Virus record (IMG/VR): IMGVR_UViG_2693429700_000012
DNA length: 4,219 bases
Source: a virus
Lineage: Duplodnaviria; Heunggongvirae; Uroviricota; Caudoviricetes
Reading direction: 5' to 3' (one strand)
The translations under genes were made by a program, and so were the position numbers. The notes beneath the pieces were generated by a model. The model was not told the origin of the DNA. It saw only the letters and a program-made list of their open reading frames with translations, and made no database searches. Below, piece by piece: positions 1 to 4,219 of the stretch; the stretch's first letter is position 1; each line of letters starts with the position of its first letter.

Positions 1-128
1 GGGAAGGCTGGGCCATACTCCTCCGGCAGAAGCAGAAAAAGCTTATTATGCTTCCATCGGAAACGATGATCTGGCAGCCTGAGTTCACAGATAAAACACT
101 CTCCAGGAAACCCGGGGCGGTTCATTAA
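1..128 (+). CDS. 3' end of an upstream nin-region gene (partial, product not recognised)
   Basis: Reading frame 3 is open from the window edge to a TAA at 126-128 (tail ...LPSETMIWQPEFTDKTLSRKPGAVH). The other two + frames carry stops before position 95. No start codon lies in the window, so this is only a C-terminal fragment. Confidence 0.3.
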   Translation, partial: EGWAILLRQKQKKLIMLPSETMIWQPEFTDKTLSRKPGAVH

Positions 129-1492: not shown

Positions 1493-1677
1493 ACGCCACA
1501 ATTCAAACGATACCAGAGCTTCTTATCCAGACACGAGGCAATCAGACCGAAGTGGCGAGGATGCTTTCCTGCGCAAGAGGAACAGTGCTCAAGTACAACC
1601 GAGACAGCAAAGGCGAGCGTCATGTAATAGTTAACGGCGTCCTGATGGTCAAACAGGGCAAGAGGGGAAGACGATGA
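1489..1677 (+). CDS. ninH: NinH-like small DNA-binding protein
   Basis: 62 aa. The core TIPELLIQTRGNQTEVARMLSCARGTVLKY...HVIVNGVLMV matches remembered lambda NinH (TIPDMLVEAYGNQTEVARRLKCSRGTVRKY...HAIVNDVLMV). ATGA start/stop overlap with rusA at 1489-1492. Confidence 0.75.
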   Translation: MNATIQTIPELLIQTRGNQTEVARMLSCARGTVLKYNRDSKGERHVIVNGVLMVKQGKRGRR

Positions 1678-1763
1678 GACTCGAAAGCGTAGCTAAATTT
1701 CATTCGCCAAAAAGCCCGATGATGAGCGACTCACTACTGGCCACAGTTTATTGGTTTTCGTAA
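1674..1763 (+). pseudogene. 5' remnant of a lambda-type antiterminator Q gene (first ~20 codons conserved, then divergent and terminated)
   Basis: ATG 1674 overlaps the ninH stop (ATGA). Translation is MRLESVAKFHSPKSPMMSDS LLATVYWFS*. The first 20 residues equal the N-terminus of lambda Q as I recall it (MRLESVAKFHSPKSPMMSDSPRATA...). Similarity decays by about 1747 and the sequence then turns abruptly AT-rich. Confidence 0.55.
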
Positions 1764-2848: not shown

Positions 2849-2884
2849 ATGTTATTGTCTTCCTTTTTTTTGAATGGTGCGCGT

Positions 2885-2912
2885 ATTTTACATACATGAG
2901 TTTGTAATACAA
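2885..2912 (-). promoter_or_regulatory. candidate sigma70 promoter for lpxR (TTGTAT-16 nt-TAAAAT on - strand)
   Basis: On the - strand, TTGTAT (complement of 2907-2912), a 16-nt spacer, then TAAAAT (complement of 2885-2890), about 35 nt upstream of the lpxR ATG. Found by eye in an AT-rich region where such matches occur by chance. Confidence 0.2.
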
Positions 2913-3323
2913 GGTGCGTAATCAATATGATGTTTTATAATTGCGTGAGACAATTGATTTATTCGTTTTTTATTGCGGTTTTTATTATCTTTTAATGTAA
3001 CGGTGTTTTTATTAAGTGTGTTTGCGTGGTGTTTTATGTTTTTTATAATTTTTATTTTATTAAATTTAAAAGCATTAGTAATGGCTATTCTATATAGCAA
3101 TATAAGAACTGTTACAAAAAAAGGGGGGGCAATTACAGGTAGTTATGGATGATGAGTGAAACAGATATTGGAGAACCGGGGAATGAATGATGTCTGAGTC
3201 TTATATATCAGAACTCCTTCGCTGTCGCTGGGGGCTCCTGTGCTTATGTCGTTTCCCCGATTCGGTTTTGAACGATTACCGAATGTTGAAGAATTATGCC
3301 AAAATATAGAAAGGATTTACTGC

Positions 3324-4013
3324 ATGAATACCCAATATTTACAGTATGTTCGTGAGCAACTTATGGCAGCTACTGCTGACTTGAACGGAGCAACGAAAGG
3401 CCAGCTCGAAGCCTGGCAGGAGCATGCACAATTTGATACTGGTACATACAAACGAAAGAAGCCGCGCATTCTGGATGTGGTAACTGGCAAGATGATTACG
3501 CTGGATAATACGCCGACTTCCGGTAAGCAGTCGTACGCAAAAGGTTCATCCATTGCTTTGGTCAGCCCGGTTGAATTCTCAACCTCTTCATGGCGCCGCG
3601 CGGTTTTGTCTCTCGATGAACATCAGAAAGCATGGTTGCTTTGGTGTTACAGCGAAAGCGTTCGATGGGGGCATCAGGTCACCATAACGCAATGGGCATG
3701 GAGCGAGTTTAAAGATTTGTTAAGTAACAGAAAAATTGCAGGTAAGACACTGGATCGCCTGAAGACGTTAATCTGGCTGGCTGCACAGGATGTGAAGAGC
3801 GAACTTGCAGGGCGTGAGGCCTATGAATACCAGACACTGGCATCATTGGTGGGAGTGACAACAAAAAACTGGTCCGAGACATTTACTGAACGCTGGGTTG
3901 CAATGAAGCACATTTTTCTACAGCTTGATAGTGATGCTTTATTGCTTGTGACGAGAACACGTTCAAAACAAAAGGCAGCATTTTTACAGCAAAATATTGC
4001 AAAACTGGATTAA
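3324..4013 (+). CDS. putative late-gene antiterminator Q, non-lambda type (possibly phage 82/QuuQ-like); start may instead be 3240 or 3246
   Basis: Long ORF 3240-4013 in the track. I favour ATG 3324 (229 aa) because it has SD AAGGA 8 nt upstream and the 3240-3323 stretch is full of rare codons (CGA x2, ATA, AGG). The identification is by position: last gene of the nin/early-right operon, directly followed by a promoter and terminator pair, with a lambda-Q remnant upstream. The C-terminal region has an HTH-like segment (YQTLASLVGVTTKNWSE). I do not recall a matching sequence. Confidence 0.5.
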   Translation: MNTQYLQYVREQLMAATADLNGATKGQLEAWQEHAQFDTGTYKRKKPRILDVVTGKMITLDNTPTSGKQSYAKGSSIALVSPVEFSTSSWRRAVLSLDEHQKAWLLWCYSESVRWGHQVTITQWAWSEFKDLLSNRKIAGKTLDRLKTLIWLAAQDVKSELAGREAYEYQTLASLVGVTTKNWSETFTERWVAMKHIFLQLDSDALLLVTRTRSKQKAAFLQQNIAKLD

Positions 4014-4025
4014 AAGCCATATACT
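3997..4025 (+). promoter_or_regulatory. candidate late promoter (pR'-like): TTGCAA-17 nt-TATACT
   Basis: -35 TTGCAA (3997-4002), 17-nt spacer, -10 TATACT (4020-4025), overlapping the Q stop codon (4011-4013). Predicted start site near 4032. The first ~25 transcribed nt contain -10-like elements (TATGTT, TAAAAAAT), as expected for sigma-dependent pause sites at Q-dependent promoters. Confidence 0.4.
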
Positions 4026-4058
4026 TCATGCAAATTTGGTATGTTGTAAAAAATGTAT

Positions 4059-4085
4059 AAACCCGCTGCCGAGTGGGTTTTTTTT
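4059..4085 (+). terminator. candidate intrinsic terminator (tR'-like) about 30-50 nt downstream of the late promoter
   Basis: AAACCCGC (4059-4066), loop TGCCGA, GTGGGTTT (stem includes one G-U pair), followed by a run of 8 T (4078-4085). With the promoter above it would give a ~50-nt terminated transcript unless antiterminated. Confidence 0.45.
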
Positions 4086-4219
4086 ATGCCCTGAGTTGTA
4101 CTTGTACGGTAAACATGCTGGCTGCTATGTAATAGAGTTTTTTTAGCCTGTAACCTCTTGACGGCATTGAATTGCTTTTGTTATGAGTTGTAAGCCAATG
4201 TTATCATCTTGTATTGGGG

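Follow-up and report, generated by a model that had tools for sequence, protein, structure and literature searches.

Gene Content of the Window and Identity of the Q Gene

The window, meaning the whole 4,219-nt stretch of DNA that was analyzed from IMG/VR virus record IMGVR_UViG_2693429700_000012, was comprised of a lambdoid nin-to-Q region. Genes encoding NinX-like, NinF, YbcO, RusA, and NinH proteins were followed by a Q gene, with a minus-strand lpxR moron between the nin genes and Q.

The Q antiterminator gene (3324-4013, plus strand) encoded a protein of 229 aa. This ORF matched the Pfam family PF06323 (Phage_antiter_Q) with an E value of 1.1e-91 and covered 216 of the 220 profile positions. 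Its product was identical to phage 82 Q (record X92588) at 203 of 229 residues (89%), and the phage 434 record names the same gene 'Q82-like'. The first-pass annotation had called this ORF a Q protein, and both the profile match and the identity to phage 82 Q bear the call out. Three unrelated Q families exist, of which PF06323 is the Q82 family (PMC9388147). A search of solved structures found no relative of the window Q and no structure of any Q82-family protein. On the minus strand, a mechanically called ORF (3883-4029) was judged to be non-coding.

Predicted Late Promoter, Pause Element and Terminator

A predicted sigma70 promoter overlapped the 3' end of Q on the plus strand, and its key bases and 17-bp spacing were conserved in related loci (see below). 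The -35 element TTGCAA (3997-4002), which is palindromic, matched the consensus at four of six positions. It was followed by a 17-bp spacer (4003-4019) and the -10 element TATACT (4020-4025; five of six positions). The last codons of Q and its TAA stop codon (4011-4013) fell inside this late promoter (PR'), the stop codon within the spacer. An earlier claim of a TTGCAA-17-TATACT promoter overlapping the Q stop thus held for every element at these coordinates. The -35 was weak (4/6), and taken on its own the promoter match was not above chance.

Transcription is predicted to start at A4032, possibly A4033 (4032-4033), as judged from the distance of 7-8 nt to the -10. With +1 at A4032, a conserved TGTA lands at +23 to +26, in line with the pause published for the phage 82 PR' (82PR') at +25 (PMC3326312, PMC4914094). 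The literature places the Q binding element (QBE) between the -35 and the -10 (PMC4914094); the 4003-4019 spacer is the expected position in the window, and we infer that Q would bind there, at a putative QBE.

A candidate sigma70-dependent pause element (SDPE), the extended -10-like TGgTATGTT, lay in the initial transcribed region at 4037-4045 (+6 to +14). It was followed by the predicted pause site TGTA (4054-4057) within an A/T-rich stretch, and a pause near +25 would agree with the T at +23. The 3' end of the paused RNA would be at about T4056 (+25). Against the T-N-Y-G consensus of scrunched sigma-dependent pauses, the TGT at +23 to +25 agreed at T-3 and Y-1, with a mismatch at G+1 (PMC9191641). 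Overall, the leader was A/T-rich from +16 to +30, and an A/T-rich, backtrack-prone pause region has been described for lambdoid late promoters (PMC3326312). The -10-like elements noted earlier within the first ~25 transcribed nt were only partly retained: TGgTATGTT at 4037-4045 was meaningful, while others, such as TATAAA at 4056-4061, were unconserved.

Downstream of the pause site was an intrinsic terminator, tR' (4059-4085, plus strand), which is annotated in phage 434. Its hairpin, AAACCCGCT-GCCG-AGTGGGTTT at 4059-4080, consisted of a 9-bp stem and a GCCG loop, with a T8 run at 4078-4085. The hairpin folded at -12.5 kcal/mol (z -4.15), with one of 200 shuffles being as stable. The predicted leader as a whole (4032-4086) folded at -15.3 kcal/mol (z -3.56). 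Counting from A4032, the predicted +1, the hairpin spanned +28 to +49 and the T run ended at +54, which agrees, given that start, with the hairpin and T8 run earlier placed about 30-50 nt from the start. The stem began only 2-3 nt past the predicted pause site.

Start and terminator together predict a constitutive short PR' transcript of ~53-55 nt (4032-4085, plus strand), an analogue of the lambda 6S RNA. Short terminated PR' RNAs have been reported for lambda, 21, phi80, 82, and P22 (PMC7547250). A 49-codon TTG-initiated ORF at 3997-4146 was judged to be non-coding, since it crosses the promoter, the terminator and the T run and since the region is unconserved beyond +28 in homologous loci.

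Expected Frequency of the Elements and Conservation across Q82-Family Loci

Singly, none of the motifs was rarer than chance. The window contained seven promoter-like sites (9.6 expected), three terminator-like sites (3.1 expected) and 12 matches to TGNTANNNT (10.4 expected). Another of the promoter-like sites, at 4178-4207, overlapped the position at which the next gene is annotated to begin.

Such counts leave room for a plainer account of the locus, in which the hairpin and T8 run merely end the Q (delayed-early) transcript and the promoter-like and -10-like matches are incidental A/T-rich sequence. The promoter-like and TGnTAnnnT matches did occur at chance frequency in the window, and the hairpin would halt any unmodified polymerase coming through Q. 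The combination of elements was less common. A composite was defined as a promoter, a TGnTAnnnT match 8-20 nt past the -10 and a terminator within 110 nt; the null was a set of 1000 first-order Markov windows of the same dinucleotide make-up, scored on either strand and at any position. The composite occurred once in the window and was present in 4 of the 1000 simulated windows. From the sequence evidence we take conservation across homologous loci to be decisive.

The comparative set contained 100 loci encoding relatives of the window Q, drawn from viral contigs and a set of genomes with one member per species. Q protein identity among the collected loci ranged down to 59%. The hosts included E. 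coli, Citrobacter, Klebsiella, Raoultella, Enterobacter, Leclercia, Franconibacter, Superficieibacter, and Scandinavium. In total, 47 distinct leaders, from about a dozen enterobacterial genera, fit one pattern: TTGCrr, 16-18 bp, a TATAyT-like -10, and TGnTATnnT at +6. The spacer was 17 bp in 43 of the 47 leaders. TGnTATnnT started at +6 in all of the pattern-matching leaders except five, in which it started at +5 or +7. Three further loci carried CA in place of TG and retained TATnnT.

An alignment of 24 diverse loci revealed invariant columns in each element: TTGC of the -35 (within 3997-4002); the second and sixth positions of the -10 (A4021 and T4025); and G4038, T4040, A4041, and T4045 of the pause element. 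T4054, at +23, was also invariant. The invariant promoter and pause-element bases are those that sigma70 reads. Information content was highest at the -35 (1.89 bits), followed by the -10 (1.74 bits) and the pause element (1.55 bits), while the Q coding sequence just upstream averaged 0.90 bits and the region beyond +28 averaged 0.50 bits. Conservation of the spacer was moderate (1.26 bits, with 15 of 17 bases identical to the phage 82 proxy described below), a signal that is confounded by coding constraint since the spacer overlaps the last Q codons.

A terminator scan identified an intrinsic terminator within +26 to +115 in 40 of the 47 leaders. Some of the remaining leaders contained weaker, less canonical candidates for a hairpin and T run when inspected by eye. 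Altogether, such a pattern is the mark of a promoter and pause site that are conserved, attached to a terminator that can be exchanged. The consensus that emerges for the 82-family late promoter is TTGCAA, 17 bp, TATAyT, TGnTATnnT at +6, and T at +23.

These results argue against a terminator that simply closes the Q transcript. The bases that sigma70 would read were invariant at 59-73% Q identity, while adjacent non-coding bases varied; the spacing and the position of the pause element were fixed; the composite was rare by chance; and experiments have shown the homologous site of phage 82 to be a promoter and a site of pausing (PMC4914094). An incidental origin of the promoter and pause element is accordingly regarded as extremely unlikely.

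Occurrence in Phage 434, Prophage Sp3 and E. coli Genomes

Window positions 3300-4219 were 100% identical to phage 434 (OL657226.1), including Q, the promoter, the pause element and the terminator. The late region corresponds to 41957-42191 of OL657226.1, where the terminator is annotated (window 4062-4087). PR' and the pause element are unannotated in that record, which carries instead an annotated paQ/CII site on the opposite strand. The nin regions differ, with ninG and ninI in phage 434 vs. ybcO, rusA, and ninH in the window. In the announcement of the 434 genome, Q, the late promoter and the lysis region form the block that was replaced in 434B (PMC9119081).

The segment was present in 1243 of 5426 complete E. 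coli genomes and was at least 80% covered in 1110. Prophage Sp3 of E. coli O157:H7 Sakai contained the same module with T7 in place of T8 and a predicted start at 900,033. Downstream of the cassette, on the same strand, were one to four moron genes and then the holin, endolysin, and spanin genes. The lysis genes of phage 434 lay 3.7 kb downstream, and in Sp3 the terminase through tail genes came after the lysis genes. Late genes lying elsewhere had been named as an observation that would speak against a late control module; this is not the arrangement found, since the lysis genes, with terminase and other late genes behind them, lay downstream on the same strand, outside the window, in phage 434, Sakai Sp3, and strain Z1323CEC0019.

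Strain Z1323CEC0019, a near-identical chicken isolate, was the best-matching genome. Its prophage was rearranged around copies of IS1203, and for this reason, in the host of the window itself, a complete late operon may have ceased to be under the control of the cassette.

The opposite-strand annotation in phage 434 raises the question of whether TTGCAA belongs to a CII-activated, paQ-like antisense promoter directed against Q, instead of or besides the late transcript. The minus strand of the window contained TTGCAATATTTTGC (TTGC-N6-TTGC) at 4002-3989, and it is a minus-strand TTGC-N6-TTGC that the phage 434 record labels as the CII site and paQ -35. The tetrads were present, but the sequence 10-13 nt downstream on the minus strand (TGTAAAAATGCTGCCTTT) contained no -10-like hexamer at the distance required of a CII-dependent promoter of the paQ type, and the promoter scan scored no minus-strand promoter at 4002-3989. 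TTGYN6TTGY occurred three times in the window vs. 1.2 expected, a count reached in 20 of 200 shuffles. Furthermore, the upstream tetrad lies within the Q coding sequence and was shifted or absent in distant relatives (e.g., loci L082 and L084). An antisense promoter would in any case be compatible with PR' and could coexist with it, but it fails to account for the feature itself. As the account of the locus, we consider it very unlikely. The palindromic -35 TTGCAA does sit inside the minus-strand TTGC-N6-TTGC, an arrangement through which CII might conceivably occlude PR' directly.

A different question concerns the main product of the intact module in a lysogen. By analogy with StxS, a PR' leader RNA with a regulatory role (PMC7547250), the ~54-nt leader (4032-4085) might act in trans as an sRNA. 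Promoters of the PR' type fire constitutively, and lysogens of lambda, 21, phi80, 82, and P22 accumulate the terminated leaders (PMC7547250). The predicted RNA also ends in a hairpin and U8, as is typical of Hfq-binding sRNAs. The cassette itself is carried by about one in five complete E. coli genomes. However, the leader past +15 was unconserved among Q82-family loci. The sole Rfam match (E values up to 1) was to STnc240 (RF02074) and was sub-threshold, with 28.2 bits against a gathering threshold of 55 and an E value of 0.32. It was rejected as a chance match, as STnc240 is an unrelated sRNA that the core genome encodes between yeeY and yoeI (PMC8825220); the window site is in a prophage. 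No evidence for Hfq binding or processing of the leader was found. The Sakai Hfq cross-linking tables, from a study whose criteria disfavoured gene-proximal sites, listed Sp3 sRNAs only at 901,332-901,662, and none at 900,033-900,086. A trans-acting RNA as the module's main product in lysogens is, on balance, improbable.

Interpretation and Proposed Mechanism

The feature at 3997-4085 is very probably the late regulatory site of a phage 82-family Q cassette, consisting of PR', a Q-utilisation site and tR'. The first-pass annotation had read it as a pR'/tR'-like late control module, a reading supported by the Q family, positional conservation and the downstream late genes, which, like the sequence elements, were observed directly. 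Promoter, pause element and nearby terminator kept their positions beside Q82-family genes down to 59% protein identity. A Q cassette has been defined as a Q gene, PR', an SDPE, a terminator and late genes (PMC9388147), and the arrangement in the window fits this definition.

In phage 82 and in lambda, experiments have established that the pause depends on sigma, that Q is loaded and that the terminator is read through (PMC4914094, PMC9388147). We infer by homology that the same steps occur at the window allele, for which the precise start, the position of the pause, the length of the RNA and the QBE given here are predictions. Sigma70 RNA polymerase would initiate constitutively at about A4032 from TTGCAA-17-TATACT. 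Retained sigma70 would then re-recognise the non-template TGgTATGTT at +6 to +14, leading to a scrunched or backtracked pause with an RNA of ~25 nt; the polymerase would pause at about T4056. Without Q, polymerase would escape and terminate at the hairpin and U8 (+28 to +54), releasing an RNA of ~54 nt. Once accumulated, Q would bind the site in the -35/-10 spacer that overlaps its own stop codon and, assisted by NusA, would engage the paused complex. The Q-modified polymerase would ignore tR' and later terminators, and the moron, lysis and morphogenesis genes would be transcribed.

These results bear out how a control element that is very common in prophages has been annotated, and they supply coordinates at base resolution for PR', the pause element and tR' that are missing from the phage 434 and RefSeq records. 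The mechanism of the Q82 family is an open question (PMC9388147), and no structure from the family was found; for these reasons a natural allele with its terminator 2-3 nt past the pause site could serve as a convenient minimal template. Current understanding is unchanged by these results.

Comparison with Known Systems

Among well-studied systems, that of phage 82 is a close relative. Its PR', qut and terminator were reportedly described by Goliger and Roberts in 1989 (J Mol Biol 210:461). Locus L061 was used as a proxy for 82PR'. All of the 2190 nt that it shares with the phage 82 record (X92588), which extend to the Q stop codon, were identical, and on the strength of this identity its continuation was taken as 82PR'. 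L061 reads TTGCAA-17-TATATT, with TGATATTTT at +6 to +14, TGTA at +23 to +26 and a terminator at about +50 to +85.

A comparison with the phage 82 late promoter had been suggested as a check on the window, and in this proxy 42 of 50 bases (84%) were identical from -35 to +15. The -35 was identical (also in X92588 itself), as were the 17-bp spacing and 15 of the 17 spacer bases. TGTA occurred at the same distance, and a nearby intrinsic terminator was again present. The eight substitutions between -35 and +15 included the -10, which is TATATT in the proxy vs. TATACT in the window, and the pause element, where TGATATTTT corresponded to TGGTATGTT, both at +6 to +14. Past +15 the two sequences were unrelated except for TGTA. 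The phage 82-type leader contained an extra hairpin at about +14 to +36 ahead of its terminator at about +50 to +85, whereas the window RNA would be ~54 nt in total.

The likeness to lambda PR'/qut/tR' was one of cassette logic. Both have Q, a sigma70 promoter (predicted to be constitutive in the window), a QBE in the spacer (putative in the window), a -10-like SDPE in the initial transcribed region, an intrinsic terminator and late genes (PMC9388147). Lambda differs in its unrelated Q family (PF03589), its pause at +16/+17 and its tR' at +194, and no sequence similarity was found.

The terminator module and the sequence that follows it (4060-4219) were also found in phages with a lambda-type Q (PF03589). 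SfV shared the terminator module at ~79% over 62 nt, where it is annotated as a terminator; the SfV hairpin lies ~107 nt past Q and is preceded by an AACGAT pause element and a promoter like that of lambda. Phage 2B8 was ~91% identical over 160 nt of window 4060-4219, and its hairpin looked degraded. Both phages differ from the window in that Q belongs to PF03589 and that promoter and pause element alike resemble those of lambda (AACGAT type). A homologous hairpin behind different types of Q implies that the terminator works as tR' with either. The comparative set places the mosaic (recombination) joint of the window, where the 'Q plus qut' and 'terminator plus late leader' modules meet, between +15 and +28.

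In the Stx-phage PR'-tR' system (StxS), a terminated leader is likewise made constitutively in lysogens, and morons are carried between tR' and the lysis genes (PMC7547250). Stx phages differ in having another Q and PR' and a 258-nt primary leader that is processed to a 74-nt Hfq-bound sRNA. Overall, the element in the window is of an already known kind: it is the same allele as that of phage 434 and Sakai Sp3, and an ordinary lambda-like late-gene switch.

Remnant of a lambda-type Q gene and the replacing block

The window contained a 29-codon ORF (MRLESVAKFHSPKSPMMSDS...) at positions 1674-1763, identified as what is left of the N-terminal part of a lambda-type Q gene; this remnant is also annotated in the phage 434 record (OL657226.1) and in RefSeq. 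Window positions 1640-1744 matched the junction between ninH and Q in HK620 and HK633 at 98% identity, and the similarity ended there. Together, the remnant and this break in similarity indicate that an earlier lambda-type Q cassette was displaced by the lpxR-ylcG-Q82-type-PR' block.

Within this block, lpxR (lipid A 3'-O-deacylase), a moron, was encoded on the minus strand (1889-2848), antisense to the early-right operon, and was followed by a very A/T-rich intergenic region of 340 bp (2849-3186) ahead of ylcG and Q. With this arrangement, transcription from PR has to cross lpxR, in the antisense direction, before it arrives at Q.

Window positions 4060-4219, comprising the terminator and its following leader, were common to phages with lambda-type Q, namely: 2B8 (ca. 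91% identity) and SfV (ca. 79%). The corresponding stretches are L102 1501-1656 and L103 1501-1560. This sharing with lambda-type-Q phages places a recombination joint downstream of the pause element but ahead of the terminator, at +15 to +28 of the predicted PR' transcript. The hairpin copy in 2B8 appeared degraded. Copies that were identical in all other respects varied in the length of the T run (4078-4085): the window and most viral contigs had T8, Sakai Sp3 (an E. coli O157:H7 prophage) and at least eight loci had T7, and one locus had T9.

Promoter-like elements around PR' and the next gene

The minus strand carried TTGCAATATTTTGC (TTGC-N6-TTGC) at 3989-4002, overlapping the palindromic -35 hexamer of PR'. 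In the phage 434 record this site is labeled as a CII site and as the -35 of paQ, a CII-activated antisense promoter type. No suitably spaced -10 element was found on this strand near 3989-4002, and the TTGC-N6-TTGC motif is of low information content.

The next gene, a moron for a membrane protein, has its annotated start at 4198, and further elements occurred shortly ahead of this position or overlapped it. These included: a near-consensus -35 (TTGACG, 4158-4163); TTGTTA-18-TATCAT (4178-4207), which resembles a promoter and is preceded by a TG; and a TTGT-N6-TTGT motif (4178-4191) labeled as a CII site in the phage 434 record. The elements at 4158-4207 may constitute a promoter of the moron or else have arisen by chance.

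IS1203 at the left end

The first ca. 124 bases of the window (1-124) were the end of the IS3-family element IS1203, with its transposase CDS ending at ca. 82. Only genome Z1323CEC0019 matched the window from base 1; other genomes matched from base 125. In Z1323CEC0019 the nin-to-lysis segment lay between two inverted IS1203 copies, and the Rha gene was split, with one half at each end of the segment. The inverted copies and the Rha halves suggest an IS-mediated inversion in this genome, by which the structural genes would have become separated from the PR' operon.

Comparison with 82-type leaders

Most 82-type leaders contained an additional hairpin (TGCCAaTG...CAcTGGCA) at ca. +14 to +36, spanning the +25 pause site. 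It was present in L061, the phage 82 proxy (ca. 2228-2250), and in many other Q82-family loci, all outside the window, with variant stems in other subfamilies of these loci. In contrast to most 82-type leaders, the allele in the window is without this hairpin and the terminator comes directly.
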